From an uncultured Clostridia bacterium (lineage in GTDB: Bacteria > Bacillota > Clostridia > Christensenellales > UBA1242): a stretch of DNA of 64,000 nt. Positions within the stretch are counted from its first letter, which is position 1; each line of letters starts with the position of its first letter. The stretch spans positions 2,278-66,277 of the forward strand of contig CANCYS010000006.1 of NCBI GenBank assembly GCA_947382485.1, read 5' to 3'. Below, one piece after another: positions 6,285 to 64,000 of this stretch. The notes under the pieces are model-generated. The model was not told where the DNA came from, did not search any database, and worked only from the letters and a program-made list of their open reading frames with translations. The position numbers were made by a program, and so were the translations under genes.

Positions 6285-6707
6285 AAATTCCTACCTTTTC
6301 TTAGTTTGTCTTAGAATTTTATTTATAAATATATATATACTTACTTATTTTAGCATATTAAGTCGAATTTTCAAACAAAAAAACCAAGCCTAGATATAAA
6401 AATTAACGTATATAGTTATTAAACAAAAAGTATTATATTGTCGAAAATTAAAGTTATAAATTTATAATTATTTTTGTTATATTTAATTTTTTCAAGCATA
6501 AGAAAAAATAAATAAATTTTTATGTAATAATTTAATAACAAACTTATTTTAAAAATTAATTTTTTTTAAAATTTTTTTTTGGTTATTTTGCACATATTTG
6601 TTTCAATTTGGAAAAAAGTGACATGGGTGAAAGTTAACAAAAAAATATTTATATTAAAATGAAATTGCAGTCACGAAAATGTGTCTGTGTCTACTAAGGA
6701 GAATAAC

Positions 6708-7415
6708 ATGAATCAAGAAGAAACTACTAATTCAGCACTAATTGCGACCCATCTGCCCAAAAATTTTAAAAAGAAAGATAAGATAAATAAGTCTTTGCTT
6801 ATAAGAAATTATATAGCAAATTTAAATAATCCTACAAAAATGAAATTCTGGATTAAAACACTACTATCTTCACTTAATGCATTGCCACAAATTATGAATA
6901 CTCTTGATAAAATCATTGAACTTCAAGCATCTTCTGTGTCATTCGCATCAAACATTTACAATAGCGATAAATCCACACTTAAAGACATTGAAAAAGTAAT
7001 TGATTTATCTGAACGCAAAAACACTATTTTGAATATTTATCTCATGACAAAAGATATGCTTAAAGGGCTATCTGAAAACGACATGATACTCATTGAAAAA
7101 CGTTATGTTGATGGTTGGAGTATTGATGAAATTTCAAAAGAATTTGAAATTTCGCACAGAACCGTTTTTAGAAAAATTGATAAAATTATTGAAAACATTC
7201 ATGAAAATTGCTTGAAAAAGCATTGGTCTGTAAGATTTATTGAATCACAAATTCAAACCGAAGGTTGGCTTAAAGAAAAGTTTACTAAACTTGTAAGCGA
7301 TTATTGCAAAAACATTAATTACAAACAAGAATCCGAAACTACATGTTTGGCAATTTTTGATAAAACTTCTTACAGTAAATCATCTTCTGAACTATACGAA
7401 GGAAACTTAGGATAG
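6708..7415 (+). CDS. phage-type late transcriptional regulator with sigma-70 region-4 / ArpU-like HTH
   Basis: ATG 6708 follows an AAGGAG RBS (the track start 6681 is GTG). HTH segment LSENDMILIEKRYVDGWSIDEISKEFEISHRTVFRKIDKII. It sits just upstream of the packaging genes, where Firmicute phage late activators usually lie. No sigma region 2 was recognised. Confidence 0.5.
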   Translation: MNQEETTNSALIATHLPKNFKKKDKINKSLLIRNYIANLNNPTKMKFWIKTLLSSLNALPQIMNTLDKIIELQASSVSFASNIYNSDKSTLKDIEKVIDLSERKNTILNIYLMTKDMLKGLSENDMILIEKRYVDGWSIDEISKEFEISHRTVFRKIDKIIENIHENCLKKHWSVRFIESQIQTEGWLKEKFTKLVSDYCKNINYKQESETTCLAIFDKTSYSKSSSELYEGNLG

Positions 7416-8443
7416 TTTAGGGAAGAACTTTTTGAACTTTGACTTTGATTTGGATATATTATGCTAGGTCTTTCTTTTTTGATATAAGTTGTATTTTTCA
7501 TATTGTTAAGTCTATTATGCAATGAATTTTCATTTTCTCTTGTATCTCCGTAATCTCTAACATAATCATCATAATTTTGATCTCTGTTATGTTCTCTCAA
7601 ATATTTTATTTCTTGACTATCTACATGCTTTTTATTTAAATTTTCTTTAAAGCGTTTAACAACTTTGTAAAGCAAGATTGCAAACAATAAAATTATTGGA
7701 ATAGCAATGATTGCAATAATTATTGTTTTAACTGTTGAAGATACATAAATTGTGTCGTTAATTTCTTTATTGTCTGGCGGATTTATGACTTCTGGATTGG
7801 TTTCTGTGTTAGCAACTATTTCTGTTAAATTAGTAACATTTTCACTATAAATGTATCCTTCATAAACATTTGTTGAATTGCTATCTGGTGTATATGAAAT
7901 GTAATACCACAAATTACTTTCGCCACCACTTGGAATATTTCCATACATTGATGCGATATAATTTATACCTGTTGTTCCTGCCAAAATGGTTGTTAAAATT
8001 TTGCCCTCTGAACTAGATGGGGCAGTCCATATTTGCGTGCCAGATGTACCTTTGATATCACACTTAATATTGTCTAAGGTTTTAACAATAGGAATGAATG
8101 TTGCAATCGTAACAGTTGTTATATTTACATAACCTATATATTTATTATATTGAACTTTCAAACAAACATCTGAAATGCTTTCAAGAACAACTACAAAATA
8201 CGTTTCAGGAATGATAAAATAAATATTTTCAAGTTCATTGCTCATTGATCTTGATTTATATAATGTGCAACCAACAAGTGCTTTTGCATATGTTGTTGTT
8301 TCTGCACTAAACAAATTTAAAGAATTATTAGCATTAGAATTTATAACTTGGTTATAGTTTTTTGCATGCAAAAAATTTACACTACACGAAAAACAACAAA
8401 TCAAATAACTACACAATAATACGCATATTTTCTTCATAATCAT
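7370..8443 (-). CDS. bitopic membrane protein with SH3b-like extracellular repeats and a charged cytoplasmic tail
   Basis: The track ORF 7370-8464 starts at TTG; the first ATGs are at 8443 and 8437. N-terminal hydrophobic segment KKICVLLCSYLICCFSCSV, second TM IIIAIIAIPIILLFAILLY, then a Y/N/D/R-rich tail. The SH3b resemblance is by eye only. No clear RBS. The 3' end overlaps 6708-7415 by 46 nt. Confidence 0.5.
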   Translation of the reverse strand: MIMKKICVLLCSYLICCFSCSVNFLHAKNYNQVINSNANNSLNLFSAETTTYAKALVGCTLYKSRSMSNELENIYFIIPETYFVVVLESISDVCLKVQYNKYIGYVNITTVTIATFIPIVKTLDNIKCDIKGTSGTQIWTAPSSSEGKILTTILAGTTGINYIASMYGNIPSGGESNLWYYISYTPDSNSTNVYEGYIYSENVTNLTEIVANTETNPEVINPPDNKEINDTIYVSSTVKTIIIAIIAIPIILLFAILLYKVVKRFKENLNKKHVDSQEIKYLREHNRDQNYDDYVRDYGDTRENENSLHNRLNNMKNTTYIKKERPSIIYPNQSQSSKSSSLNYPKFPSYSSEDDLL

Positions 8444-8520
8444 ATTATATTTCAATAATTTCAAAGGAAAAATGCGAAAAATGTCTTATATTTCAAACTT
8501 ATAAACTATTATAAAAAATT

Positions 8521-9954
8521 ATGAATAAAAATAAAATCTATAAACTTAAAAATGTTTTTAAAGAAATTAACAATAGAAATCTACTTCAACTTTTAAATTA
8601 CAACTCAGGAAAAATCAAACATCAAAAACAAATTGAATTTCATAAATCAACAAAAAGAAATCGTTGGCTATTTGGTGGAAATAGGACGGGAAAAACTGAG
8701 TGTGGAGCTGTTGAAACTATATGGCTTTCACTTGGAATTCATCCCTATAAAAATAATAAAAATAGTACAGATTGCTGGGTTGTTAGTTTGTCTAACAGAG
8801 TTCAAAAAGAAGTTGCACAAGCAAAAATTTTAAAGTATCTTCCGAGAAATTCAATAGAAGAAATTGTTATGTCAGAAGGCAAAAAATCTAATCCTGAAAA
8901 CGGAGTAATCGAATGTATTATTGTAAAAAATATATTTGGAAATCAAAGTCGAATTTGGTTTAAATCTTGTGAAGAAGGAAGAGATAAATTTCAAGGTGCA
9001 AGTTTAGATTTTGTATGGTTTGATGAAGAACCTCCACAAGATATTTATTGTGAATGCAAAATGCGTGTGCTTGATAGATGTGGAGAAATTTTTGGAACAA
9101 TGACACCTTTAAAAGGGTTTACATATATCTATGATGAAATTTATTTGAATAATAAAAATGACGATGAAATTTATTGTTTATTTATGAGTTGGGAAGACAA
9201 TCCTTATTTAAAATTAAGCGAAATAGAAAGACTATCAAAGACTATGTCAGAAGATGAAATTGAAAGTAGAAAGTTTGGAAGATTTTCATCAATAGATTGT
9301 GGATTAATATATAATGAGTTTGATATAAATGTGAATGTTGTTGAACCTTTTAATATTCCAAAAGAATGGCAAGATAATATATCTATTGATCCTGGACTAA
9401 GCAATCCACTTTCTTGTCATTGGTATGCACGAGATTATGATGATAATGTGTATGTGATTGCAGAGCATTTTGCTGAAAACAAAACAATTGAATTTCATTC
9501 TAATAGAATAAAAGAAATATCAAAAAGTTTAAATTGGAAAACAAAGTCAAATGGAATGGTGGAGGCTCTAATTGACAGTGCTGCAAACCAGAGAACTCTT
9601 GCTTCACAAAAAAGTGTTTCAGAGTTATTTTTTGATAACGGAATTTTAGTTAATCCAAATGTCAATAAAGATGTTTTATCTGGTATATCAAAAGTGAAAA
9701 CTTATCTTAAAAATATAACAGGAAAAAGTAAACTTTTTATATTTTCAAACTGCGTAAATTTAATTCGAGAATTTAAAACATATAGATGGAATGGCTCAGA
9801 TTCTCCAATAAAAAAAGATGACCATTGTTTGGACGAATTAAGGTATTACATTATGAGTTTAACTTCTTATACTTCTAATAAAAATTTTAAAAGTGAAATC
9901 ACAAAAGACAAAGAACGTCTAATTAAATTATTAAAGAGAAAACAAAATGTCTAA
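8521..9954 (+). CDS. terL: terminase large subunit
   Basis: Walker A-like GGNRTGKTE and Walker B LDFVWFDEE, with C-terminal nuclease-type acidic motifs (for example KKDDHCLDELRYY). 477 aa. An in-frame TAA at 8512-8514 fixes ATG 8521 as the first start. No Shine-Dalgarno sequence upstream. Confidence 0.85.
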   Translation: MNKNKIYKLKNVFKEINNRNLLQLLNYNSGKIKHQKQIEFHKSTKRNRWLFGGNRTGKTECGAVETIWLSLGIHPYKNNKNSTDCWVVSLSNRVQKEVAQAKILKYLPRNSIEEIVMSEGKKSNPENGVIECIIVKNIFGNQSRIWFKSCEEGRDKFQGASLDFVWFDEEPPQDIYCECKMRVLDRCGEIFGTMTPLKGFTYIYDEIYLNNKNDDEIYCLFMSWEDNPYLKLSEIERLSKTMSEDEIESRKFGRFSSIDCGLIYNEFDINVNVVEPFNIPKEWQDNISIDPGLSNPLSCHWYARDYDDNVYVIAEHFAENKTIEFHSNRIKEISKSLNWKTKSNGMVEALIDSAANQRTLASQKSVSELFFDNGILVNPNVNKDVLSGISKVKTYLKNITGKSKLFIFSNCVNLIREFKTYRWNGSDSPIKKDDHCLDELRYYIMSLTSYTSNKNFKSEITKDKERLIKLLKRKQNV

Positions 9955-10378
9955 TAACAAAATTACTAATAAAAAATTAATTAATCTTTTAACAAAACTT
10001 GCAAATGGTTTTTATTATTCAGAAGAACAAGTCGAGTATCAAAAAACGCAAAATAAAGTAAAAAACATTGAAAACTATAATAATAATGCTAAAAATATAA
10101 GTTTTTTCGATTATGATGTCACGGGTAAACAACTATTTGAAAATGATTATGATAAAATTAAAACATCAAATGAAACAGAAACAATCTCTAATAAAAACCT
10201 TACTTTATCTAAAAAGAAAATTACCACGCACTACGTTCAACCTGATATTAGTGCTATTAAAATTTTGTTTGAAATTAATAGGAAGAAGGTAGATAAAAAT
10301 GACATAGAAAGCATGAGTGATGACAAACTTATAAAACTTAAAAATAAACTTATTGAGGAACTATCAAATGAAAATTAA
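9947..10378 (+). CDS. hypothetical phage protein, weak candidate small terminase subunit
   Basis: 143 aa. The ATG overlaps the terL stop (ATGTCTAA). The segment KKKITTHYVQPDISAIKILFEINRKK resembles a C-terminal motif of some small terminases; this is a weak comparison from memory. Confidence 0.35.
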   Translation: MSNNKITNKKLINLLTKLANGFYYSEEQVEYQKTQNKVKNIENYNNNAKNISFFDYDVTGKQLFENDYDKIKTSNETETISNKNLTLSKKKITTHYVQPDISAIKILFEINRKKVDKNDIESMSDDKLIKLKNKLIEELSNEN

Positions 10379-10544
10379 TAAATCAAATAGTATATTTAAA
10401 TGTGATATTGTTGGGTGTAACAAAAACTCAACTTTTGAAATTAAAACTGGTAGTTATAAAGGTGACTTATTTATGTGCGAAAATTGTTTCAAACAACTTC
10501 GAAATTTAATAAAAAAGGAAAGCACAAATGAATCAAAAAAATAA
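10368..10544 (+). CDS. small zinc-ribbon protein
   Basis: ATG 10368 follows GAGGAA (the track start 10353 is TTG). Four Cys arranged as CDIVGC...CENC. Overlaps both neighbouring ORFs. Confidence 0.5.
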   Translation: MKINKSNSIFKCDIVGCNKNSTFEIKTGSYKGDLFMCENCFKQLRNLIKKESTNESKK

Positions 10545-12399
10545 AAAATATTTTTATTCTGAAATCGAAGACCAAGTGATTGTCAACTTTATCAAAGAAG
10601 ATTTTTTAAATAGACAGCAACAACGAAAACAATATGAGTTAACTTGGGAATTAAACTTAAACTTTTACTTAGGAAACCAATTTAGTTATATATCAAATGC
10701 AGGTGAAATTAATGATGTTGAAAAACAATATTACTGGGAAAACAGAGAGGTTTTTAATCATATTGCACCTATTATTGAAGCAAGATTATCTAAACTTAAT
10801 AAGGTTAAACCTTTATTAAATATTCGTCCTTCAAGTGGTTCAGATAAAGATATTTATTCAGCAAAACTTGCAAAATCTATACTTCAATCAACCATTGATA
10901 AATATTCGCTATCTTCAATTATATCAACTGCAAACTATTGGAGCGAAATTACTGGAACTTCATTTTATAAACTATCTTGGGACGACGCTCTTGGAGATAC
11001 CATTGGAGTGATTGATAAACAAGAAATTAAAAATGGAGATGTAACCATTTCAGTTTGTTCACCATTTGAAATTTATCCGGATTCTAATAGTTCTATTGAA
11101 ATTGAAGATTGCGAATCAATAATTGAAGCAAGGGCATATCCAGTTAAATATATCAATTCAATTTGGAATACTAATTTTGTTGGCGAAAATATTGATTTGT
11201 TTGATATTAATAATAACAGTTTTCTTTCAGGAATGTCTGGAAGAAGTAATATTACAAAAGTAATTCATTCAACAAAACAAGACCATATTTTACTAATTGA
11301 ACGATATGAAAAACCAACAAAAAATAGAGTGAATGGAAGACATACAATAATTTGTGGAGATACACTTTTATATGATGGTGATTTACCATACAACCTTGGT
11401 AAAAATGGAAACAAATCATATCCATTTATTAAACAAGTTTCAACTAAACAAATAACTTCATTCTGGGGAATGAGTGTCATTGAAAGATGTATTCCTTTGC
11501 AAAGGACATATAATGCAATTAAAAATAAAAAACATGAACTGATTGCAAGACTTGCAAGTGGAGTTCTTGCTGTTGAAGACGGTTCAATTGATATTGATAA
11601 TTTAGAAGATGAAGGTCTTGCACCTGGCAAAATTTTAATTTATAGAAATGGAACCACACCTCCTAAATTTTTAGATGCTGGTTCAATACCACCAGAATTT
11701 GATGATGAAGAAAATAAACTTAGATCAGAAATGAATAGTCTTGCTTGCATAAGCGACATAACAACAAATTCTAGTATTCCAAGTAATGTAAATAGTGGTT
11801 CTGCTATTTCAATGCTCATTAATCAAGATGAATCTAGACTGTCGCTTACAGCAGAACACATAAGAGAAAGTATTCGAAAGATTGGCGTCGGGATAATTAG
11901 GTTATACAAACAATTTGCTAAGAAAGTTAGACTTGGTAAAATTAACGATTCCAATAATATCATGCAAATATTTTATTGGAATAATTCTGACCTTACAAGC
12001 GATGATGTTATTTTTGAATATGACAATGAATTAGAAAATTCAACAGAAAATTTAAAATCATTAATCTTATCTTTATATGACAAAGGTTTGCTTTCAGATG
12101 AAAATGGTAAAACAAGTTCTGATGCAAAACATAAAATTTTAGAAATGCTTGGATTTAAAAATTGGGAATATCATGATGATTTAATTGAAAATCACAAATC
12201 AAGAGCCCATAAAGAAAATTTGCAACTTTTAAAATTGGAAGCACCATTGGATATTGATGAACATTCAATTCACATTGTTGAACATACTAAATTTTTAATT
12301 TCTGATCAATCATCAAACGTTGATAATGATTTTAAAGAAAAGTTATTAAAACATATCAAAGAACATAAACAAAAACAAAATTTTATTAAGGAAAATTAA
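10528..12399 (+). CDS. phage portal protein
   Basis: 623 aa ORF between the terminase and scaffold genes. The N-terminal LNLNFYLGNQFSY segment looks portal-like. Size and position are typical for a portal. Confidence 0.75.
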   Translation: MNQKNKKYFYSEIEDQVIVNFIKEDFLNRQQQRKQYELTWELNLNFYLGNQFSYISNAGEINDVEKQYYWENREVFNHIAPIIEARLSKLNKVKPLLNIRPSSGSDKDIYSAKLAKSILQSTIDKYSLSSIISTANYWSEITGTSFYKLSWDDALGDTIGVIDKQEIKNGDVTISVCSPFEIYPDSNSSIEIEDCESIIEARAYPVKYINSIWNTNFVGENIDLFDINNNSFLSGMSGRSNITKVIHSTKQDHILLIERYEKPTKNRVNGRHTIICGDTLLYDGDLPYNLGKNGNKSYPFIKQVSTKQITSFWGMSVIERCIPLQRTYNAIKNKKHELIARLASGVLAVEDGSIDIDNLEDEGLAPGKILIYRNGTTPPKFLDAGSIPPEFDDEENKLRSEMNSLACISDITTNSSIPSNVNSGSAISMLINQDESRLSLTAEHIRESIRKIGVGIIRLYKQFAKKVRLGKINDSNNIMQIFYWNNSDLTSDDVIFEYDNELENSTENLKSLILSLYDKGLLSDENGKTSSDAKHKILEMLGFKNWEYHDDLIENHKSRAHKENLQLLKLEAPLDIDEHSIHIVEHTKFLISDQSSNVDNDFKEKLLKHIKEHKQKQNFIKEN

Positions 12400-12401
12400 T
12401 T

Positions 12402-12998
12402 ATGGATGAAAACATTTTAGAACAACCATCTTTTAATAGCAACAATGAAAATTTAGATAATAATATTAAGCAAAATGAAGATGGCTCTATTTTTGGAAAA
12501 TTTAAAGATGCAAAAAGTTTGCTTGAAGCATATAACAACTTACAATCAGAATTTACCAGAAAAAGCCAAAAATTAGCTGATTTACAAAAAAAAGTTGAAG
12601 AAAATGCAGTTTTTAATACTTATGAAAATATTGATGATTTTGTTAATAGCACAAAAGATAGCGATAAATATAAAAAGGAAATCACGGAGATTATTGAAAC
12701 AGATAATGAAATAAATAGTCTGCCAAATAAATATCATGTTGCTTACAAAATTATTCAAACTGCTGAAAACAAATCTGCACAAACTTTAAATGACCAAAAT
12801 TTTATAGACAATTATATTCAAAACAACAATCAAATTAAAGAGAATATTATATCTGAATATTTGTCTAATTTAAACAATATTTCAACCGAACCAAAAACAA
12901 TTCAGGGCAGTCCTACGAGTATATATTTTTCACCTAACACAAACAAGCCTAGAACTTTAAAGGAAGCTGGGGAAATATTTAAGAAAATGCTAAATTAA
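12402..12998 (+). CDS. capsid scaffolding protein
   Basis: 198 aa, acidic and helical-looking. GKFKDAKSLLEAYNNLQSEFTRKSQKLADLQKK resembles scaffold N-terminal motifs. Lies immediately upstream of the capsid gene. No prohead protease gene is present. Confidence 0.6.
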   Translation: MDENILEQPSFNSNNENLDNNIKQNEDGSIFGKFKDAKSLLEAYNNLQSEFTRKSQKLADLQKKVEENAVFNTYENIDDFVNSTKDSDKYKKEITEIIETDNEINSLPNKYHVAYKIIQTAENKSAQTLNDQNFIDNYIQNNNQIKENIISEYLSNLNNISTEPKTIQGSPTSIYFSPNTNKPRTLKEAGEIFKKMLN

Positions 12999-13011
12999 AA
13001 TAGGAGAAAAC

Positions 13012-14184
13012 ATGGTAACATTAGAAACAGCAAATAGCGCACTTAAAGAAGTTTACTTGGGCGTTGTATCTAATCAATTAAACACATCAATCAATCCGCT
13101 TCTTGCAAGAATTAATCAAACAACCTCTGATGTGTGGGGAAAGGAAATCAGAAAACTTGCACCTTATGGTATAAACGGCGGCATTGGTGCAGGTACAGAA
13201 GATGGAAACTTGCCAAGTTCAGCAGGCAACAACTATGCACAATTTGTACTTGAACTTAAAAACCTTTATGGTAGAGTTGAAATTTCTGATAAAGCAATAC
13301 GAGCATCTGAAAATTCAGAAGGAGCTTTTGTAAATTTACTTAATGCAGAAATGGATGGACTTATTAAAGCTAGTGCATTCAATTTTGGAAGAATGCTTTA
13401 TGGTGATGGTTCAGGTATTTTAACAACAATTACCGAAGATGGAGATAACATTATTACCGTTGATTCAGTTTCAAATCTTATCGAAGGTATGGTCGTTGAT
13501 ATTATTTCTACAAGCGGTGTATCTATTAAAGATGGTTTGAGAATTGCATCTATTGATAGAACAAATAAAACAGTTAAATTTACAACTTCAATTTCGGGAA
13601 CATTCAAAGATAACTGTTTGTGTGTTCAAGGATCATACGGAAAAGAACTTACTGGTCTTGGAGCAATTTTTAAAAGCAATGGTTCTCTTTATGGTTTGAA
13701 TAGAGAGAATTATAGTTGGATGGTTCCTTATATGAAAAACATTGCAACTGAAAGTGCAAATACAAATATAAGTGAAACAGTAATACAAAAAGCAATTGAT
13801 GAACTTGATGAATGTGCTAATAGCAAAGTTGATTTTATTGTGTGCTCAGCAGGTGTAAAAAGAAATTATCAATCATACATGCTTTCATACAGAACTAACA
13901 TTGATGTTATGAATTTAGAAGGGGGATTTAAAGCCATTTCATATAATGGTATTCCTGTTGTATCTGACAGATTTGCACCAGCCAATACAATGTTTTTACT
14001 AAACACTAGTGAATTTAATCTTCATCAATTGTGTGATTGGAAATGGCTTGAAGGAGAAGATGGAAGAGTGATTAGACAAACACTTGGAAAACCGACTTAT
14101 CAAGCAACGCTTGTTAAATATGCTGATATTATATGCAATAAACCAAGTGGTCAAGCAAAAATCTCAGGAATTGCCGAATCATAA
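13012..14184 (+). CDS. major capsid protein (HK97 fold)
   Basis: 390 aa, follows GGAGAAAAC RBS. The core segment LYGRVEISDKAIRASENSEGAFVNLLNAEMDGLIKASAFNFGRMLYGDGSG matches the pattern of HK97-like capsid families. Position after the scaffold gene fits. Confidence 0.8.
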   Translation: MVTLETANSALKEVYLGVVSNQLNTSINPLLARINQTTSDVWGKEIRKLAPYGINGGIGAGTEDGNLPSSAGNNYAQFVLELKNLYGRVEISDKAIRASENSEGAFVNLLNAEMDGLIKASAFNFGRMLYGDGSGILTTITEDGDNIITVDSVSNLIEGMVVDIISTSGVSIKDGLRIASIDRTNKTVKFTTSISGTFKDNCLCVQGSYGKELTGLGAIFKSNGSLYGLNRENYSWMVPYMKNIATESANTNISETVIQKAIDELDECANSKVDFIVCSAGVKRNYQSYMLSYRTNIDVMNLEGGFKAISYNGIPVVSDRFAPANTMFLLNTSEFNLHQLCDWKWLEGEDGRVIRQTLGKPTYQATLVKYADIICNKPSGQAKISGIAES

Positions 14185-14228
14185 ATTACATTTAAAAACT
14201 TGTAATTTAAATTTTGTTGGAGAATAAA

Positions 14229-14621
14229 ATGAAATATGTAAATAAACGATACGAAGTTTATTATGATAATTTTAATTATTATAATTTAATAACTAAAATT
14301 GATAGAAATTATAGATTATGTTTTGATAATATCGAAAAATTATTCATTATAATAAATATCGCAAAAAACAATCAAATTTGCATGAAATTTAAATCATTTT
14401 CATTTAATCTAATCAAATCATTGCAAAAAACAAGAGTTGAAAATTCAAAATTTATATTTGATGAAATTGATAGTAATAATAACAAAATCATCTTAGATAA
14501 TCATAAAGTGATTAAAAATAAAGCAATTGACTCTTTGCATGATTTGATTAAATTTTCCAACAGAACAAACACAATTTCTAAAACAGACATTAATAAAATT
14601 GTCGAGGGAAAAAATGCTTAA
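14229..14621 (+). CDS. hypothetical virion-module protein
   Basis: ATG 14229 follows GGAGAA (the track start 14214 is TTG). 130 aa, N/K-rich. No motif recognised. Confidence 0.5.
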   Translation: MKYVNKRYEVYYDNFNYYNLITKIDRNYRLCFDNIEKLFIIINIAKNNQICMKFKSFSFNLIKSLQKTRVENSKFIFDEIDSNNNKIILDNHKVIKNKAIDSLHDLIKFSNRTNTISKTDINKIVEGKNA

Positions 14622-15189
14622 AAAGACACTAATTAAATGTTCACAATTAATTGGAAGAGATGACATAATTTTAACATTGAAAGATGTTAATGATGCAGAT
14701 GAAATTGAAAATTCTTCAATTAAAAATGATGTCACTAGACTTATAAACTTTTACAATTTTATTGTAAATTCTATATGCGAAAATTATCTAGATTTGACTT
14801 ATACCGAAAGCCTATCTTCTGATTTTGAACGCAAAATTTTTTATCATGATTTCTATTACTATCCAATTAAAATTATAGAAATAGCAGATAAAAATTTTGG
14901 ACATAGGCCATTTCAAATTAAATCAAATTTTATTATAACAAATGAACCAAACAAAATTTACAACATTACTTATAAATATGTTCCTAACGCTATAACAAAA
15001 CTTTCAGACTGTTCAAGTCTTACAAAAACTATTAATGACAATATTATTTGTTTTGGTATTGCAAGTGAGTTTTTAGCTAGCAAAGGGCAATATAATCAAA
15101 GTGAATATTGGAAAAATAAATTTTTATTTGAAATATTTAAAATTAAAACTCATAAGGAAAGACTTTTAAAGTCAACTTTCTGCAAATGA
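14614..15189 (+). CDS. hypothetical protein, candidate head-to-tail adaptor
   Basis: ATG 14614 follows GAGGGA. 191 aa. Overlaps the previous ORF by 8 nt and the next by 4 nt (ATGA). The adaptor call rests on position only. Confidence 0.4.
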   Translation: MLKKTLIKCSQLIGRDDIILTLKDVNDADEIENSSIKNDVTRLINFYNFIVNSICENYLDLTYTESLSSDFERKIFYHDFYYYPIKIIEIADKNFGHRPFQIKSNFIITNEPNKIYNITYKYVPNAITKLSDCSSLTKTINDNIICFGIASEFLASKGQYNQSEYWKNKFLFEIFKIKTHKERLLKSTFCK

Positions 15190-16568
15190 AACAGAACAAC
15201 AAAAACTACTTATTTTTTAACTTTAATCCAGTTATTGAAAATAAGATAATAAACAAATCAGACTTAACAATAGAATCGGTTTATAATATTACACTTGAAA
15301 ATAATATTATTGAACCCGTGCATGATTTTACAGACATTTTTGAATTAATTATCGATAAACAAAATTTAGAAAGTTTTTATGATGAGAACAAAGACATTTT
15401 AAATCAACTGACTGATATAAAATTTTATGAATTTATTTATGACAAAAACTATTATGAGAGAGTATTTGTATTAACACAAAATTATAAACTATATGAGATT
15501 GATAAATCACTAAATATAATTGTTGATTTGAATATCAAATTTAGTTCAGAGCCAAAAACTTTTATTAGAGACAACAAAATTTATTTCTTATCAAAAAATG
15601 ATATTTTGATATACTTTGAAAAATTTGAAAATCCAGTATTTATAAGTTCGTTTTGTAATATTGAAAAAGTATGTACACATGATAAATATTTATATTTTAC
15701 AACTGGGGAAGAACCTTTTAAAATTTTTTCAACAGAAAATCAAGAGTTATCAAACATTTCAGATGATTTATCATATTTTGAATATTTTGAACTAAATTCT
15801 AATGATGGAAAGATTTTAGAAATATTAAACTTTAAAGATAATTTGTATATTGTTCAGCAATATAATATAACTAAAATGACTTTACACTCTGGTAAATTTA
15901 CTCTCCATAGTTATTGCAAGATTGAATCTAGAATATTTGAAAATACAATATCTCAAATTGATGATTATATTTTAATCTATACAACATCTGGTCTATACAT
16001 TTTTGACGGAAATGATTTCAAACAAATTTTTAGCAATATTACTAAAAAAATTTGTAATAATCAAAATCAAGCGGTTTCGTTTAACAACAAATATTATTTG
16101 ACTACAAAGTTATTAATTAATGACAAAATTGAATCTGTATTATTAGAATTTAACCTTGAAAATAATATTTGTAACATTTATAAAATAGGAAAAATTAAAA
16201 ATATTTATGTTTCTAAAACTATTAGTGAATATAATTTATTTATTAATGTTGAAGAAAATAACAATTCTATGTTGTTATTTTATAATAACAATTATAATTC
16301 AATAAACAAAAAATATATAAAATTTAATAAGATGACTTTTGATGATACTTTTGTTAAAACTTTGAATTCAATAAAATTTATTTGCAATGGTAAATTTTAC
16401 ATTAACATTGGTAGTGACATTTCAAACATTCAGCTAAGTAGCACAAATTATACAAGAATGTCTAATCTGGGATTGAGAGGAAGTTATTTTCAAATTGAAA
16501 TTTTTGGAGATGAACAATTTTTTATAGAATCTTTCTTAATTGAAATTTCAAATGTGGGTGAATATTAA
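15186..16568 (+). CDS. hypothetical protein, candidate tail hub or nozzle (beta-propeller-like repeats)
   Basis: 460 aa. Recurrent blade-like motifs: KIYFLSKNDILIYF, KYLYFTTGEEPFKIF, NLYIVQQYNITKM, YILIYTTSGLYIFDG, KYYLTTKLLI. Its position after the putative adaptor matches P22 gp10 and T7 gp12. Confidence 0.4.
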   Translation: MKQNNKNYLFFNFNPVIENKIINKSDLTIESVYNITLENNIIEPVHDFTDIFELIIDKQNLESFYDENKDILNQLTDIKFYEFIYDKNYYERVFVLTQNYKLYEIDKSLNIIVDLNIKFSSEPKTFIRDNKIYFLSKNDILIYFEKFENPVFISSFCNIEKVCTHDKYLYFTTGEEPFKIFSTENQELSNISDDLSYFEYFELNSNDGKILEILNFKDNLYIVQQYNITKMTLHSGKFTLHSYCKIESRIFENTISQIDDYILIYTTSGLYIFDGNDFKQIFSNITKKICNNQNQAVSFNNKYYLTTKLLINDKIESVLLEFNLENNICNIYKIGKIKNIYVSKTISEYNLFINVEENNNSMLLFYNNNYNSINKKYIKFNKMTFDDTFVKTLNSIKFICNGKFYINIGSDISNIQLSSTNYTRMSNLGLRGSYFQIEIFGDEQFFIESFLIEISNVGEY

Positions 16569-17602
16569 TGATTGATAAATACAAAAATCTTCTTTCAAAA
16601 ACAATTGAAATTGAAGAGAGTTTAAAATCCATTGAAACCATAAAAGAAAGTACACAAAATCTATCAACAAGTTTTAATAAAAGTTTTTTGAACTATTCAA
16701 TTATTGGCACAAAAAGAATATCGATTGCTAGTTTCGACATAAAAAAAGATTTGACTATAACTTTGCAATGCCAAATTGATTTAAGTCTTTTATCTAAACA
16801 AAACATATCTTTTTCATTGATTATAAATGATTTTTGCGTTTTTTTAACAAGAAAACAGTTGGAAAGTGGTCACAATCAGATTGTATTAACAAAAAATTAT
16901 ACTTCATATAATAATGAAAAATTAAATATTTATCTTGAAATTAATACGTTAGACAATAAAGTTGCTACGCTTGAATCTGAAAATCTTCTTGTTATTGGGT
17001 TAAATGTAAACAATAATGAAAATGAATATAATGCTATAGAAAGTAATGATGGATTTTTGTTGTCTTGTTTAGTTAATAATAATCTCTATATAAAAAATAC
17101 AGATAAAAATTTGAAAACTTTAAATTTAGAAGAATTCAATTATTTGGCATCTGCAAAGTCACACTGTATAGTTTATTTGAAAAATCAAAATAAAACATAC
17201 ATTTTTAGGGTTGACCTTAATGGTAAACTATTTTACTGCAACACTGATGATATGAATGAAAAATACATTACTGATAAAGTAAATAAAGTTTATACATCAA
17301 CAGATGATAATATAATTCTTGTTAGTTTTATAAAAAACAATTCATGTTATTATTTTGATATTGAGAATGGAAATGTATCTAAAATATCAAAACTTGAATT
17401 TGTAAATAATCCTTTAATTTCTTGTTATAATTACTACAACAAATTCAATGATAAATTTTATTTAATTGTAACAGATAGATACAATTCAAATTTTATTGTT
17501 GAATCAATTATACCTAAAAATTCAACTGGTGAAAATCTTAAAGTTGATTATAAAATTGATATTTCTACTTATGAGGTGAATGATGAAAATGAATCTTCAT
17601 AA
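16568..17602 (+). CDS. hypothetical virion protein with an N-terminal coiled coil
   Basis: 344 aa. The start overlaps the previous stop (TAATG). The N-terminus KYKNLLSKTIEIEESLKSIETIKESTQNL looks helical and the rest is N-rich and beta-like. Confidence 0.4.
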   Translation: MIDKYKNLLSKTIEIEESLKSIETIKESTQNLSTSFNKSFLNYSIIGTKRISIASFDIKKDLTITLQCQIDLSLLSKQNISFSLIINDFCVFLTRKQLESGHNQIVLTKNYTSYNNEKLNIYLEINTLDNKVATLESENLLVIGLNVNNNENEYNAIESNDGFLLSCLVNNNLYIKNTDKNLKTLNLEEFNYLASAKSHCIVYLKNQNKTYIFRVDLNGKLFYCNTDDMNEKYITDKVNKVYTSTDDNIILVSFIKNNSCYYFDIENGNVSKISKLEFVNNPLISCYNYYNKFNDKFYLIVTDRYNSNFIVESIIPKNSTGENLKVDYKIDISTYEVNDENESS

Positions 17603-19583
17603 CAAATTAGTTGTTTGCTTAAATGGCAAAGAATACATATTTTATAATCAAATGTTTGAAAGCGTTTATGAAAAAATAAAAAACTTAGAATCATACAATA
17701 ATTTAATTGCGATTGGAAAAGGTGAACGATCATCAAATCAAAATAATTTTAAATTAACAAATTATATAAAAACTTTTAATCTTGAAACTGAAACAATTCA
17801 AAATGATATTTCAAAAGGTGAATTATTTATTAAAAAATCTTTAACCATAAATGATGGTTCTCTTGATGGACAGTATATTACTGAGATGGGTTTATGTTCG
17901 TGTGATGAAGAACCAACTATATATAATTATTTTTCACTTATCAATGAGGAACATCAAGGAATATTAAAAAACAAAAACGAAAGTATCCAAATTTATATCT
18001 ATATTTATTTAGAACTTACACATGAAAAAGAAGGATTATTTACACTTGGAAATAATCCATTCATAAGTTTTCTTTTGGGTGAGGGTTTAAATAATAAAAA
18101 AATTTATATTTCACGAGGTAATAACACATCAGAGAATATACCAATATCACGAGCAAAATTGTCTTCTGCAAATAAATATTTATGTGATATAAAATTTAAT
18201 ACTAATGAAAATTCCAAATCCGAACTTATCCTTTCATCCAATCTTGGTTCTGGCTCAACATATGAAATTGTTTACTTGATTGATGATGAACCATTTGCAA
18301 GAATGAATGTGTTAAACATAAAAAACACCATTTCATTAACTAAGGATTTTGAGCCAAAAGCAAATTATGTTTTGGACCTTGGCGATGAAATTTCTCACAT
18401 AAATAGTATTACTAATTCTACCACAAATGAAACAGAAAATAATTTTTACACGACTAAGTATGCAACAAAATTCGGAGATAAAATTATCTTGCCATTTAAC
18501 AATATGTTTAATTTTGAAACCCCAAGATTTATTTCGAAAGATGGAGATAAAATATTTTTTGTTGTTAATGATACAATTTATGGATACCAAAATATAAACT
18601 ACAATTTGATACAACTTAATCTATCAAATTTACATATTCAAAACATAAGTAAAATTGTCAGTTTTGACAGATACCTATTTGTAATTACAAAACATAGCCC
18701 TTATATTTCTTTATTCATATTTGATAATGGACTTTTAAAAAAGTGCAAAATTGATACAAAAAATAGTGAAATATATAAAAAATTAGACGATTTTTACAGT
18801 ATTGACATTACGCAAGCAAGAAACAATATTTTCATGATTGGTTTTATTTCAAAGCATGACAACATAGGTCATACATTATATTTTAACTTTAATGAAGAAA
18901 ATTTTAGTTTGGAATTTGATTCTTATTTAGAAACTCCATATGAAATTAACTTTATGCTTGCTATGTATAAAAATAATTTTTCAGATGCAGTAATCATATT
19001 TTTAAAAGAACATCAGTACTCACTATATTGCAGGATTATTAATCATTTTCCAGATAAAACAAAAACAGAAACTCAGTCTGTTGTAGCATATTATTATACT
19101 CATGATACAAAAAATATTTATACAAAAAACAGGGCAGTAATTGTAGAGAAAAACACGGCACCTTACACTTGGATTTACTATTATCCTCAACTATACAGAT
19201 ATACCCTTGACCTTTTTGAAACAGAACATAAGATTAACATTTCAACAAATTTACTATATTTAATTCAACAGCAAGATGATAAATCTTATAAAATATATAA
19301 CTTAGTTGGATATAATATTCCAACTGAATTTACTGATGGTTTTCCAGAAGAAATTGATCAATCAAAAATAATTGATTTTGAATTTTTAACTGACACTCTA
19401 CTAATTTTTACTAATGACACAAAAGAAAATATTTTAGCATATAATTTAAACAATCTATGCACAGCAATAGAAAATGTGTCATCAAATAATGATACCTATT
19501 CGGTTAATATGGATACCTATGACATAATCGGAAAAAACAATGAAGGAGTTATTGCTTCACTTACAATAAATTTTGAACTATGA
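17580..19583 (+). CDS. candidate tail fibre or receptor-binding protein
   Basis: 667 aa. Alternative ATGs at 17583 and 17589, with GAGGTG at 17574-17579 favouring 17589. The N-terminal segment ...GELFIKKSLTINDGSLDGQYITEMGLCSCDEEPTIYNYF resembles the tail-collar fibre N-domain motif (..IrEiGLfd.dG.li..), recalled from memory. Confidence 0.4.
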   Translation: MMKMNLHNKLVVCLNGKEYIFYNQMFESVYEKIKNLESYNNLIAIGKGERSSNQNNFKLTNYIKTFNLETETIQNDISKGELFIKKSLTINDGSLDGQYITEMGLCSCDEEPTIYNYFSLINEEHQGILKNKNESIQIYIYIYLELTHEKEGLFTLGNNPFISFLLGEGLNNKKIYISRGNNTSENIPISRAKLSSANKYLCDIKFNTNENSKSELILSSNLGSGSTYEIVYLIDDEPFARMNVLNIKNTISLTKDFEPKANYVLDLGDEISHINSITNSTTNETENNFYTTKYATKFGDKIILPFNNMFNFETPRFISKDGDKIFFVVNDTIYGYQNINYNLIQLNLSNLHIQNISKIVSFDRYLFVITKHSPYISLFIFDNGLLKKCKIDTKNSEIYKKLDDFYSIDITQARNNIFMIGFISKHDNIGHTLYFNFNEENFSLEFDSYLETPYEINFMLAMYKNNFSDAVIIFLKEHQYSLYCRIINHFPDKTKTETQSVVAYYYTHDTKNIYTKNRAVIVEKNTAPYTWIYYYPQLYRYTLDLFETEHKINISTNLLYLIQQQDDKSYKIYNLVGYNIPTEFTDGFPEEIDQSKIIDFEFLTDTLLIFTNDTKENILAYNLNNLCTAIENVSSNNDTYSVNMDTYDIIGKNNEGVIASLTINFEL

Positions 19584-19828
19584 AATTTAATAATAAAATC
19601 TATAAAATATCTTCTGGAACAAATGTAAATTTATATGCAACTGATGCTTCACATATGGACTTGTATGTATGCAATAAATTTGTTACAAAAAAACAGTTGT
19701 CACTCGAACCATTTATAAGATGTTTAAGCACAAACACATCTTTTAATGCTGGTTATGTAAAGAAAATTAATGATAACTATATTTGCATTTGTTTCGACGA
19801 TATTATTTCGGTGCAACATGAAAAGTAA
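19580..19828 (+). CDS. hypothetical small protein, last gene of the coupled operon
   Basis: 82 aa. The ATG overlaps the previous stop (ATGA). Confidence 0.45.
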   Translation: MKFNNKIYKISSGTNVNLYATDASHMDLYVCNKFVTKKQLSLEPFIRCLSTNTSFNAGYVKKINDNYICICFDDIISVQHEK

Positions 19829-19912
19829 GATAATAGATAATTTCTATTTTGAATATATATACAAAGTTACAAAGACATACAAACTTAATAAAATTTTAAC
19901 ACGAGGAAAAAA

Positions 19913-20533
19913 ATGAACTTGAAATCAAAAATCAAATCCTATAACTTTTGGGTTAGTTTAGGCAGTGCAGTTTTATTGCTTTTAAACTTGCTTGGTAGGC
20001 AATTTAACTTTTCAATTGATGAATGTTTATATAATGATATCTTAACAGCTATTTGTGGTATTTTAGTTATTCTTGGAATTATTACTATGCCAGCAGGTAC
20101 AAATCAAAAACTTCCAACTCAACAAACAAATGATTCAATTTTAAATCAACCATTTATTAAAGAACAAACACTAACTATTAATCAAACTAATCTTAATAAC
20201 TCTGAACCTGAAAATCTTAACTTTGAAGAAAAACAAGAAAATGATACTGACAATGAACAACTTCAAATGCAGGTGAATGAAATTACAAATGAAAATTCTG
20301 TTAATGGAACAACTTCACAACAATTTATTTCAAACGAAACACAAACTATAAATCAAACTGAGATTCAAAACGAAGAACAAGTCTCAATTCAATCTAATTT
20401 GAATAATATTTATGATAATAATCATGAAGTCTCAATTTCTGATACACATGTTGTTATTGAAAATAATGATTTCTCAAATCAAAATAACAATCAAAGTGAA
20501 TTTACTAATAACCAACAAACCAACACATTTTAA
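19913..20533 (+). CDS. phiLC3/LL-H-type holin N-domain fused to a long Q/N/E-rich tail
   Basis: RBS GAGGAAAAAA. N-terminus KSKIKSYNFWVSLGSAVLLLLNLLGRQFNFSIDE...ILTAICGILVILGIITMPAG gives two TM helices in the arrangement of phage holin family 1. It is followed by about 140 aa of low-complexity Q/N/E/T sequence. Confidence 0.6.
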   Translation: MNLKSKIKSYNFWVSLGSAVLLLLNLLGRQFNFSIDECLYNDILTAICGILVILGIITMPAGTNQKLPTQQTNDSILNQPFIKEQTLTINQTNLNNSEPENLNFEEKQENDTDNEQLQMQVNEITNENSVNGTTSQQFISNETQTINQTEIQNEEQVSIQSNLNNIYDNNHEVSISDTHVVIENNDFSNQNNNQSEFTNNQQTNTF

Positions 20534-20597
20534 ATCCATAATGCTATAAATAATCTTGAACCTAAAACTATGGATAATTTGTTTAAATATATTTATA

Positions 20598-20634
20598 AGA
20601 GAGATACTTTTATGTGTTTCTCTTTTTTATTTTG
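20598..20634 (+). terminator. rho-independent terminator after the holin gene
   Basis: Stem AGAGAGATAC / GTGTTTCTCT (10 bp including 2 G-U pairs), loop TTTTAT, then TTTTTATTTT. Confidence 0.6.
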
Positions 20635-20677
20635 CATAATTTGACTTTATTATTACATCTTAAATACTTTATTTTAC

Positions 20678-20706
20678 TTGATTTATTATATAAGGCATAT
20701 TATAAT
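20678..20706 (+). promoter_or_regulatory. sigma-A type promoter
   Basis: TTGATT, 17 nt spacer, TATAAT. Lies about 65 nt upstream of the ATG at 20772. Confidence 0.55.
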
Positions 20707-20771
20707 ATCACTAAGATTAAAGTTTTTTTATTAATATTTTAATTTTATAGTGAAAAGAAGGTGGCACTTTT

Positions 20772-21788
20772 ATGTCTTATAAGAACACAATGAAACTTTT
20801 TGCTTCTAATTTTGTGCTTGTTTGGAAACAATTACTATATCTTTTGGTATGTCTACTTATTTTTATTTTGTTTTCATATGTTATGGCAAGCCCAATCGTA
20901 GATTTGCTTAAAGAAAACAATATTATGAATGATATCAACATTACTTTATCAAATGCTTACAACACACCAAGTGAAGTGGCACTTAGTATTAGTGATATGT
21001 TCAAACATTTCTTTGTTATCATATTCAAAAACTTTGATAAAATTTGGCTCAGTTTCTTTGGAACAATAATCTTTGCATTATTGCTACCTTATATACTTAT
21101 TCAATTGTCTTTTTATAATATCAGTTCAATCATTTACCAAAAATTATCAACGAATATGAATGTAAAATATATTCAAAACGGACTTCAAACTCTTAGACAA
21201 TCAATCAAATATGCATTAACAACAATATTAATCAACATTCCATTTATGATTATTAGTATTTTGCTTTTATATATTTATGTGATGTCTGCGACAACTGTTA
21301 TATCTGCAATTATTGGATTGGTGTTCCTTTTTGCATTGCTTATTTTTTCGACATCAGTTCGAATGACTATATTTACTTGTTTTGTTGGAGAAATGGTTCA
21401 AAACAATTCAAGTCCATTTACTGCATTTGGCAAAGGTCTTAAATCAGTAATGAAAAACTTCTGGAAAATTTTATCAATGAGCATTATGATTCTTTTAACT
21501 GTAATTTTAGTTAATGGATTCATTGCATTATTCACATTCTTATCAGGATTGTTAGTTACAATTCCTGCAACATTTGTGCTTCTTGCAATTTACTATTTAG
21601 TCATTCACTTGAACATTCAAGGAGAAAGATATTACCTTGGTGATAACTTTATATTCAATCCTGTTAAATATAAAGTAAAAAAAGAAGACTACACAGTGAT
21701 TGATTATCCAGAAGAACAAAAAGAAATTCAAGTTCAAACCACAGTTATTAAGAAAAAGAAAACTAAAAAATCTAAAACAAATAAATAA
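20772..21788 (+). CDS. polytopic membrane protein of unknown function
   Basis: RBS GAAGGTGG. 338 aa with at least 6 hydrophobic segments and a K-rich C-terminus. Only 14 nt separate it from rnj, so co-transcription is likely. Confidence 0.6.
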   Translation: MSYKNTMKLFASNFVLVWKQLLYLLVCLLIFILFSYVMASPIVDLLKENNIMNDINITLSNAYNTPSEVALSISDMFKHFFVIIFKNFDKIWLSFFGTIIFALLLPYILIQLSFYNISSIIYQKLSTNMNVKYIQNGLQTLRQSIKYALTTILINIPFMIISILLLYIYVMSATTVISAIIGLVFLFALLIFSTSVRMTIFTCFVGEMVQNNSSPFTAFGKGLKSVMKNFWKILSMSIMILLTVILVNGFIALFTFLSGLLVTIPATFVLLAIYYLVIHLNIQGERYYLGDNFIFNPVKYKVKKEDYTVIDYPEEQKEIQVQTTVIKKKKTKKSKTNK

Positions 21789-21802
21789 TTTAAAGGAATT
21801 TT

Positions 21803-63231: not shown

Positions 63232-63374
63232 ATATTTTTTATTTTGAACACAATAAATTTATCACAACTTTTTATATTTGTAAAGAATTTTTATCATTTT
63301 TATAATTAATATTTTATTTGATTATTTACATTATTATGCTACAATATTTTTATAAATAATAAAAAGGAAAGTTT

Positions 63375-64000
63375 ATGAAGTTAAATTTTTTGGGAGTTGG
63401 CACTGCTAGTGCTACCAAAATTTACCACACTTGCTTTACTATTCAAAATAATAATGAACACTTTTTGATTGATTCAGGTGGTGGGGTTGAAATTTTGACC
63501 AATCTTAAAAAGATGAATATTGATATTAGTGGCATTAACCATGTGTTTTTGTCTCACATTCATATTGACCATTGTCTTGGCATGCTTTGGTTTTTAAGAA
63601 AAAGAAACTGGCAATCACATGATGGATTGCTTCCTTTAAATTTTTATGGGAGCAAAAAAGTTCTTGATGATTTTAAAAAGGTTATGCAAGTTTTACTTAA
63701 AAAAGAATTTGCAAAAACTGGGACATTGATTAATTTTCATGAAATTTCTGATGGGCAAACCATAAATATTATTGGTCTTGATTTTAAATTTCTTGATACA
63801 CATGCTAAAAAAGATGAAATGTTTGGATTTATTGCATCTGACGGACACAAAAAAGTTGCATTTGTTGGTGATGAAATTCTTAAAAATGAACTTTATGACA
63901 CTGTTCGTGATATTGACTTTTTGATGCTTGATGCTCTTTGCATTGGTAAAGAAAATAAAAATGTTCTTCATTTAAGAGAAAGTTTAGAGGATTTTTTGAC
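63375..64000 (+). CDS. MBL-fold metallo-hydrolase, C-terminus beyond the right window edge
   Basis: ATG 63375 follows AAGGAAAG. MKLNFLGVGTA...HFLIDSGGG...VFLSHIHIDHCLG carries the HxHxDH motif. The frame was read stop-free to 64000. It is missing from the track because it has no stop in the window. Confidence 0.8.
   Translation, partial: MKLNFLGVGTASATKIYHTCFTIQNNNEHFLIDSGGGVEILTNLKKMNIDISGINHVFLSHIHIDHCLGMLWFLRKRNWQSHDGLLPLNFYGSKKVLDDFKKVMQVLLKKEFAKTGTLINFHEISDGQTINIIGLDFKFLDTHAKKDEMFGFIASDGHKKVAFVGDEILKNELYDTVRDIDFLMLDALCIGKENKNVLHLRESLEDFL

Follow-up and report, generated by a model that had tools for sequence, protein, structure and literature searches.

Known gene transfer agents and the locus under study

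Gene transfer agents (GTAs) are well documented mainly in Alphaproteobacteria, and FpGTA, a podovirus-like GTA of a gut Firmicute, was published only in 2026. FpGTA of Faecalibacterium prausnitzii consists of a ~10-kb operon that encodes a small and a large terminase subunit (TerS and TerL), a portal, a Prp-like protein and a major capsid protein (MCP) with the PGAP name 'N4-gp56 family', and of a second operon that encodes a BppU-like fibre, a receptor-binding protein, a holin and an endolysin (Nat Commun 2026, PMC12946183). Its particles have 40-nm capsids, are tailless or short-tailed and contain ~8.5-9 kb of host DNA. Near-ubiquitous in its host genus and reported in Faecalibacterium only, it has been called the first podovirus-like GTA-like element (PMC12946183). 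Long reads from virus-like particles (VLPs) have also revealed GTA-like packaging of host DNA in Christensenellaceae, ~4.1 kb for HGM11616 and ~6.3 kb for QANA01, for which no locus was assigned or sought (PMC12946183). Here we describe a phage-derived gene cluster of ~13.9 kb (6681-20634, regulator through terminator) in a 64-kb stretch of contig CANCYS010000006.1 from an uncultured Clostridia bacterium; the whole of this stretch is referred to below as the window. The cluster is probably a host-owned element ('viriform') with the lifestyle of a GTA and not a prophage.

The locus places phage-like virion genes for TerL, portal, MCP and tail hub in a host chromosome, and it is inherited vertically with that chromosome in a large clade of Clostridia from the gut (Christensenellales and relatives), where it is intact and under purifying selection. 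A more specific proposal is put forward tentatively: that it is an ancient GTA, independent of FpGTA and already fixed in the ancestor shared by a large part of the gut Christensenellales and by related Clostridia, that it is the basis of the ~4-6 kb host-DNA packaging in Christensenellaceae faecal VLPs, and that it comes with its own sigma-like activator and cis site and with a membrane partner through which a signal from the cell envelope is coupled to particle production.

Both FpGTA and this locus are podovirus-like elements of gut Clostridia that encode TerL, portal, scaffold and MCP along with hypothetical virion proteins, both are free of replication and integration genes, and in both the lysis or fibre functions are maybe unlinked. 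The MCP of FpGTA belongs to the N4-gp56 family, whereas the MCP described here matches NF033394 only (E<=0.01), a difference of annotation and not of alignment. Between portal and MCP, FpGTA encodes a Prp-like protease; the gene found there in this locus, of 198 aa, has no Prp match. A putative TerS is encoded upstream of TerL in FpGTA, whereas a sigma-like regulator and a divergent membrane protein are encoded upstream of TerL here, and the present locus has a gp10-like hub. FpGTA was reported from one genus, and this locus spans several family-level sub-clades. Orthology with FpGTA was rejected on annotation (MCP family, lack of a Prp-like gene and upstream organisation), not on alignment, and because of these same three differences the locus appears, as judged by annotation, to be a second, independent domestication of FpGTA's kind. 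The representatives of distant MCP clusters carry only the names 'phage major capsid protein [Clostridia/Clostridiales/Bacteroidota bacterium]', with no link to Faecalibacterium.

Virion genes of the module

The head, packaging and hub genes are as follows.

8521..9954, + strand: TerL (ATPase plus nuclease), 477 aa; Terminase_6N/6C, phrog_2 at 4e-29
9947..10378, + strand: 143-aa protein, directly after terL
10368..10544, + strand: small ORF of 58-63 aa, between the 143-aa gene and the portal gene
10528..12399, + strand: portal (P22/SU10 type), 623 aa; P22_portal at 4e-13, SU10_portal, phrog_156 at 2e-28
12402..12998, + strand: acidic scaffold-like protein, 198 aa; no family match, position between portal and MCP as in podophage Jasmine
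13012..14184, + strand: MCP (HK97 fold, podovirus type), 390 aa; NF033394, phrog_14242 at 1e-59, SU10_MCP
15186..16568, + strand: tail hub or nozzle (P22 gp10-like, T7 gp12-like), 460 aa, by AlphaFold and Foldseek

These genes belong to a run of twelve plus-strand open reading frames (ORFs) between 8521 and 19828, the products of which measure, in order, 477 (TerL), 143, 58-63, 623 (portal), 198 (scaffold-like), 390 (MCP), 130-135, 191-196, 460, 344, 667 and 82 aa. A preliminary description of the window, made without database searches, reported twelve coupled ORFs with gaps of 30 nt or less. The layout holds, with junctions formed by overlaps (several of them ATGA) or short gaps, but the limit on the gaps has to be raised to 44 nt: the spacing from the MCP gene to the next gene is 29 nt with a TTG start and 44 nt with the start chosen by public gene callers.

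Family matches bear out the earlier assignment of terL, portal and an HK97-fold capsid gene without a recognisable protease. Across 62 TerL orthologues from 62 species, the Walker A motif (GGNR[ST]GK[TS]), the Walker B motif (VWFDEEP) and the nuclease Asp are invariant. The MCP scores 280.7 bits against NCBIfam NF033394 capsid_maj_Podo (cut-off 80) and matches no other family at E<=0.01. The acidic protein proposed earlier as a scaffold is found in the expected place and its gene is kept in 73 loci, with lengths that vary from 119 to 305 aa; this assignment is made by position only because a family match is lacking. The 143-aa protein has a conserved C-terminal motif, L.L.KKK(I/V)T.HY.PPD..A.K, and two of 24 members of its family match the PHROG TerS family phrog_309 at 1e-6 while the window copy matches nothing; it is possibly, and tentatively, a small-terminase-like subunit. 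Orthologues of the small ORF that follows are intact in 21 of 21 cases (56-75 aa), and a small ORF (76 aa) is found at that position in the more distant sub-clade C as well.

The 460-aa protein was modelled with AlphaFold from ten aligned sequences (pLDDT 80.5, pTM 0.74) as a beta-propeller plus a beta-sandwich. The best Foldseek matches in the PDB are tail hub or nozzle chains of podophages, led by Pa223 (9nwi_Y, 1e-14) and including VP1, Pan3, GP4, SU10 (7z47_G) and T7 gp12; the TM-score against the P22 tail complex 9jg6_a is 0.55 over the full length, and the top named matches in BFVD are 'Bacteriophage P22, Gp10'. Homologue searches with the single sequence and with a 22-sequence profile gave 8-10 matches, since AT-rich low-complexity words saturated the candidates. 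A short, podovirus-type tail is supported by the portal and MCP families, both of podovirus type, and by the gp10-like fold of the modelled protein. The module proteins include no recognisable tape measure, tail tube, sheath or protease, in line with the short-tailed architecture proposed at the outset. The module thus combines a P22/SU10-type portal, a podo-type MCP and a gp10/gp12-like hub with no recognised tape measure, as a podovirus-type virion does.

Inheritance with the host chromosome

Relatives of the locus were sought in a bacterial collection with one genome per species. An MCP relative is encoded by 462 stretches, and the conservation tests described below use the best 80 of these. 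The 80 lie on separate contigs, all from metagenome-assembled genomes (MAGs) of uncultured gut Clostridia, with MCPs 62-81% identical to the query, and derive from human, roe deer, goat, sheep, buffalo, rabbit and chicken samples. The carriers include Candidatus Borkfalkia, placed in Christensenellales by NCBI taxonomy. In the protein database >6300 clusters match the MCP at E<=1e-10. Some carriers bear odd labels: four with this locus and the rnj neighbourhood (L049, L065, L071 and L074) are labelled Acidiphilium sp. or Corallococcus sp., some are labelled Lachnospiraceae, and NCBI puts Candidatus Fimimonas (L038 and L039) in Myxococcaceae. These are likely taxonomic mislabels.

When all window proteins were compared, a syntenic block was found that consists of the giant gene (- strand), the regulator, the membrane protein (- strand), terL, the 143-aa and 63-aa genes, portal, scaffold and MCP, followed by the 135-, 196-, 460-, 344-, 667- and 82-aa genes, the holin gene, a second membrane-protein gene, rnj, a methyltransferase gene and a U32 peptidase gene. 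The part from regulator to holin and the rnj, methyltransferase and U32 peptidase flank are syntenic in sub-clades A, B and C. The locus lies just upstream of rnj in these three sub-clades, which differ in genomic GC (28% to 48%), and the GC of the module tracks that of the host. Sub-clade C comprises ~20 species with genomic GC near 48% (for example L040, on a 1.09-Mb contig) and has shorter distal genes. Its gene order is a 150-aa sigma-r4 regulator, a 249-aa protein (- strand), terL, 101 aa, 76 aa, portal, 131 aa, MCP, and then 93-, 182-, 415-, 310- (DUF7934) and 273-aa proteins. To the right a 353-aa gene, in the position of the window's 338-aa membrane-protein gene, is followed by rnj.

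The genes are intact. Full-length orthologues were found in 79 of 79 cases for the MCP, 60 of the 61 complete ones for TerL and 67 of 68 for the portal, and the small ORFs are also kept. A same-species JGI contig is 99.5% identical over 21 kb. Between these strains the module has 44 synonymous and 34 non-synonymous differences, which gives a non-synonymous to synonymous ratio (pN/pS) of 0.18, compared with 0.10 for the flanking host genes; terL, portal and MCP together have 28 synonymous and only 4 non-synonymous differences, and the 344-aa protein and the holin-like tail are relaxed. The preliminary description had allowed for a very recent remnant. A recently inactivated prophage that decays neutrally would account for the lack of lysogeny, replication and lysin genes, but the orthologues are intact in nearly all 80 species loci, the pN/pS is 0.18, the catalytic residues of TerL are invariant, and the divergence of the module between sub-clades equals that of RNase J (44-50% identity). 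This depth of conservation refutes a recent remnant.

Distances among the module proteins follow those of RNase J. Mantel correlations with RNase J are 0.85 for MCP, 0.94 for TerL and 0.88 for portal, values that no permutation reached, and the neighbouring host methyltransferase, used as a control, gave 0.94. Within each of two sub-clades the correlations are 0.60-0.92 (p<=0.002). The mean p-distance overall is 0.27 for MCP and 0.41 for RNase J, and in the window's own sub-clade the MCP is slightly more diverged. The cross-genome comparison that had been suggested earlier thus revealed both a conserved position, by synteny with rnj in sub-clades A to C, and purifying selection.

It has to be considered whether a mobile element, such as a capsid-forming satellite of the phage-inducible chromosomal island (PICI) type or a minimal prophage, integrated repeatedly beside rnj in many species. 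The cluster is compact (~14 kb) and has its own regulator, IMG/VR pipelines call its fragments viral, and its position differs in sub-clade D. Against this, module and rnj co-diverge as tightly as a neighbouring host gene and rnj do, the GC of the module tracks host GC from 28% to 48%, and the flanking genes directly abut the module in each sub-clade. The window and the conserved flanks of related loci yielded neither att repeats nor a gene for an integrase, excisionase, primase or replicase. Repeated integration is therefore very unlikely. IMG/VR holds only 24 short fragments of this chromosomal element, several with the giant gene and regulator as flank, and no complete phage genome with this module. 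One contig in that database (L098:6400-16478, 27 kb) has the genes from terL to MCP followed by genes for a GTPase, a DNA methyltransferase, a helicase and a LexA/UmuD-like protein, with no tail genes; a restriction or defence island may have been inserted into the tail half or may substitute for it.

Family searches found no integrase or recombinase, repressor or Cro, replication or lysin genes in the 64-kb window or in the conserved host flanks of related loci, and searches for direct and inverted repeats bracketing the module gave imperfect AT-rich matches only and nothing att-like. These results agree with the earlier remark that such genes are missing and that the right flank is housekeeping. 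From 20.7 to 64 kb the window contains housekeeping genes only: a membrane protein gene, rnj, a methyltransferase, a U32 peptidase, a sigma factor, mgsA, pcrA, lepA, hrcA-grpE-dnaK-dnaJ, ligA, priA, def-fmt, recG and others.

To the left, the window ends within a 30-kb giant gene, and the absence of phage genes covers the window and the conserved flanks.

3-6284, running past the left edge, - strand: 5' end of the giant gene, a 9895-aa (29.7-kb) ORF with a lipoprotein-type signal peptide (…FVSVFFVAC|GKSS)

The module had also been thought of as the late arm of a larger, complete prophage with its early genes beyond the giant gene. The window does end within that gene and the DNA further left is unseen. 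The intervening gene, however, is an opposite-strand lipoprotein gene of the host with homologues (24-42% identity) at the same place in related species, and in sub-clade C that place is taken by other conserved host genes, for a polysaccharide deacetylase, an SSB-domain protein and a 638-aa protein, which are syntenic across ~20 species. There would be no precedent for a prophage that is interrupted by 30 kb and yet conserved in the 80 species loci examined, and a late arm is extremely improbable. The giant protein is rich in S, N, Y and T, its first 2096 aa gave no match in Pfam, and it is probably a giant surface protein.

Of the readings offered before, the domesticated particle-forming locus thus remains in its GTA-like form, which is supported by synteny on the scale of an order, co-divergence with rnj, intact ORFs and purifying selection. 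Its satellite form is unsupported, as integrase and replication genes and signs of mobility are all lacking.

Comparison with other particle-forming systems

The RcGTA/CcGTA elements of Alphaproteobacteria share with this locus a head-tail cluster of ~14 kb, vertical inheritance, purifying selection, distribution over an order-level clade, a lack of integrase and replication genes, and unlinked lysis genes. RcGTA differs in being siphovirus-like: it encodes an HK97-type protease, tape measure and tail tube and is unrelated in sequence, whereas a short tail and no protease are found here. Packaging and transfer have been proven for RcGTA, whereas for this locus they are proposed.

PBSX of Bacillus is, like this locus, a chromosomally fixed phage-like element of a Gram-positive host; it packages random host DNA and is released by lysis. 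It has a myovirus-like contractile tail, an xre repressor, a linked holin and lysin, and a range of one species group, and none of these was found here. The present locus also departs from the tailocin/PBSX pattern in that capsid, portal and terminase are present, the hub is of podovirus type, and a sheath, tube and tape measure were not recognised.

The portal and MCP families, the gp10-like hub and the lack of a head protease are shared with P22, SU10 and Jasminevirus podophages. In Jasmine the order terL, two small ORFs, portal, scaffold and MCP is that of this locus; a tail spike then follows in Jasmine, with no annotated tape measure. The closest deposited phages are Jasmine-like phages of Arthrobacter, Microbacterium and Cellulosimicrobium, with MCP identities of only 23-29% and with 42-47 kb genomes that include replication and lysis genes. 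This locus, in contrast, has only virion and packaging genes, a regulator and a holin-like gene. A podophage of the P22/SU10/Jasminevirus type is the putative ancestor suggested by these families. Capsid-forming PICIs and satellites resemble the locus as small elements with their own capsid and packaging genes. Satellites, however, are mobile elements with att sites and genes for an integrase, alpA and a replication module, none of which was found here, and they usually lack tail genes, whereas this locus has tail genes and is inherited vertically.

DNA packaging and the case for transfer

The particles are almost certainly filled with DNA because TerL and portal are among the most constrained genes. 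We infer that they package host DNA, which would be mostly chromosomal because the element can neither excise nor replicate. In the mechanism proposed here, the regulator would turn on the operon at ATGCGAwwwwwTGTC upstream of terL, probably in a subpopulation. Short-tailed particles would then assemble, and TerL would fill them with headfuls of DNA, mostly that of the host. Lysis by the holin-like protein and a lysin encoded elsewhere would free the particles, which would hand their DNA to related cells.

Several points weigh against a GTA. The DNA transfer step is entirely a matter of deduction, and the capsid would have to hold less DNA than the 14 kb of the cluster, since GTA particles carry quasi-random host fragments shorter than the locus that encodes them. 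Neither a clear small terminase in the module nor an endolysin linked to it was found. The holin-like protein matches phrog_297 at 1.7e-7, but it scores under the cut-offs of Phage_holin_1 and holin_phiLC3, and its identity as a holin is for this reason of moderate confidence only. The distal tail genes are poorly conserved and relaxed (pN/pS ~1.2 for the 344-aa gene) and are missing in one close relative (L022), so the capacity for delivery may vary or may have been lost in some lineages. In sub-clade D (Christensenellaceae proper) the regulator, the membrane protein and the module stay together but the right neighbour is typA/bipA and not rnj, and the position of the locus is therefore not universal. 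The figure of 462 counts carriers only.

A domesticated particle locus could also have been selected for a role other than transfer: its particles could be PBSX-like killers, could provide the population with extracellular DNA or lysis, or could act against related phages as a defence or a decoy. The identical conservation evidence applies to such a role and, as PBSX illustrates, particles can be vertically inherited and filled with DNA without having to deliver it (PMC12946183, discussion). The fast evolution of the distal tail genes, their loss in L022 and the conserved membrane protein that travels with the module would also fit. However, the strong constraint on the portal and on the ATPase and nuclease motifs of TerL is expected if DNA packaging matters, the podovirus-type tail has no contractile sheath and could not kill as known tailocins do, and no toxin or bacteriocin domain was found. 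A role without transfer is on these grounds rather unlikely, though less so than the prophage and satellite explanations.

If host DNA is moved by the particles of the proposed GTA, a gut clade that is abundant, heritable, health-associated and largely uncultured would have in them a major route of gene flow. The host range, which covers up to 462 genomes at species level from the guts of humans, ruminants, rabbits and chickens, is far wider than that of FpGTA, and the locus is a testable candidate for the Christensenellaceae packaging events seen in VLPs (PMC12946183). The capsid gene, together with the rnj neighbour in three of the four sub-clades, could serve as a virome marker that separates host-owned particles from prophages; IMG/VR currently lists such host-owned elements as viral contigs.

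Regulator, membrane protein and cis site

Three features lie upstream of terL.

6681..7415, + strand: regulator with a sigma-70 region-4-like helix-turn-helix in its C-terminal half; public callers start at 6708 (235 aa; 235-244 aa overall)
7370..8437, - strand: membrane protein, 355 aa, between regulator and terL; signal peptide or N-terminal transmembrane segment, extracellular domain, transmembrane segment, cytoplasmic tail
8470..8485, + strand: probable cis element AAATGCGAAAAATGTC, core ATGCGAwwwwwTGTC, 49 nt 5' of the terL ATG

The regulator exceeds the Pfam cut-offs of Sigma70_r4_2 (28.1 bits) and Sigma70_ECF (24.8 bits) and matches phrog_36 at 2e-8, and a profile of 25 homologues matches sigma region 4 of SigF/SigL in the PDB (E ~7e-4), as expected from its first description as sigma-region-4-like. 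It is found upstream of terL, in synteny, in every sub-clade examined. The dedicated GTA activators GafA/GafYZ also have a sigma-region-4-like domain and are analogous to this regulator.

A homologue of the membrane protein is encoded on the minus strand directly 5' of terL in sub-clades A to D, which makes it a constant companion of the module. Its sole family match is a weak one to SH3_3 (E 0.09), and a PDB profile search was empty. On the minus strand, within 8438-8460, a TATAAT hexamer ends 6 nt ahead of the ATG of its gene (8437), and the sequence is conserved across the closest species. Because the hexamer ends so close to a conserved ATG, it suggests that the mRNA is very short-leadered or leaderless and is made back-to-back with that of terL.

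The cis motif occurs once on the plus strand in each ~21-kb locus, is unique in the window at 0 mismatches, and stands in a spacer that is otherwise diverged and AT-rich. Among the loci of the 11 closest species it is found at -49 in eight and at -40 in two (L004 ends in TGTA), and in the eleventh (L022) a variant, ATGTG...TGTC, is found at -19 relative to the called start. Its conservation points to a probable promoter or operator of the module operon. A promoter consensus scan of this AT-rich DNA gave 126 sites where 124 were expected and was uninformative.

Distal genes, holin and terminator

The remaining features of the module are as follows.

14229..14621, + strand: 130-135-aa protein, no family match
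14614..15189, + strand: 191-aa (191-196) protein, candidate head-to-tail adaptor by position only; 50 loci, 182-249 aa; no PDB or family match
16568..17602, + strand: 344-aa distal virion protein, fast-evolving, with a strain-level pN/pS of ~1.2
17580..19583, + strand: 667-aa protein, candidate fibre or receptor-binding protein; no family or PDB match
19580..19828, + strand: 82-aa ORF, last of the coupled block, ATGA overlap with the preceding gene; 8 intact orthologues, sub-clade A
19913..20533, + strand: holin-like protein, 206 aa; N-terminal hydrophobic region matches holin families, long Q/N-rich tail
20597..20634, + strand: intrinsic-terminator-like hairpin (20597-20624) and T tract

The 130-135-aa gene is present in 22 loci (97-141 aa), in 17 of them at full length by a length and coverage filter. 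A single-sequence AlphaFold model of the 191-aa protein reached a pLDDT of 31, and PDB profile searches with the 191-, 344- and 667-aa proteins gave nothing significant. Homologues of the 344-aa protein measure ~800 aa in sub-clade B. In sub-clades C and D its position is held by DUF7934 (E up to 6e-30; L040:13405-14337 and L077:14364-15341), and because this domain recurs at the same position in two more distant sub-clades, it may be a virion or tail protein of these elements. Orthologues of the 667-aa protein are intact in 22 of 23 cases in sub-clades A and B, at 25-49% identity, and the gene is absent from L022 and from sub-clade C. In L022 (12185-13700) the holin-like gene comes straight after the hub gene and the 344-, 667- and 82-aa genes are missing, either by natural deletion or by relocation of the distal tail genes.

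The N-terminal part of the holin-like protein is 30-70% conserved in sub-clades A and B. A phiLC3-type holin followed by a terminator had been proposed; the terminator hairpin was found, as the sole terminator-like site in 6000-22000, but the phiLC3 type was not confirmed by the family scores given above.

The window has a GC content of ~28%. The tail half of the module (14000-19000) has 22-24% GC, compared with 27-29% in the head half and ~30% in the flanks, and the low GC of the tail half fits its faster, more relaxed evolution.

Gene lengths differ in JGI calls from the same species (L082 and L083), where the 191-aa and 667-aa proteins are lengthened to 211 and 681 aa and the 460-aa protein is shortened to 416 aa. 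Strain-level frameshifts were considered as the source of these calls (211, 416 and 681 aa) and were ruled out since the DNA is identical at those stop codons. Both TGAs (15186-15189 and 19580-19583) sit in ATGA stop/start overlaps, and TGA ends 4 of the 43 long ORFs of the window. The JGI caller evidently took TGA as sense, which is an annotation artefact and not recoding.

At the right edge of the window a metallo-beta-lactamase-fold protein is encoded (63363-63998, + strand, running off the edge) that has a precomputed match to PF23023 (Anti-Pycsar Apyc1) in addition to Lactamase_B. It is probably a metallo-beta-lactamase-fold hydrolase of the host.

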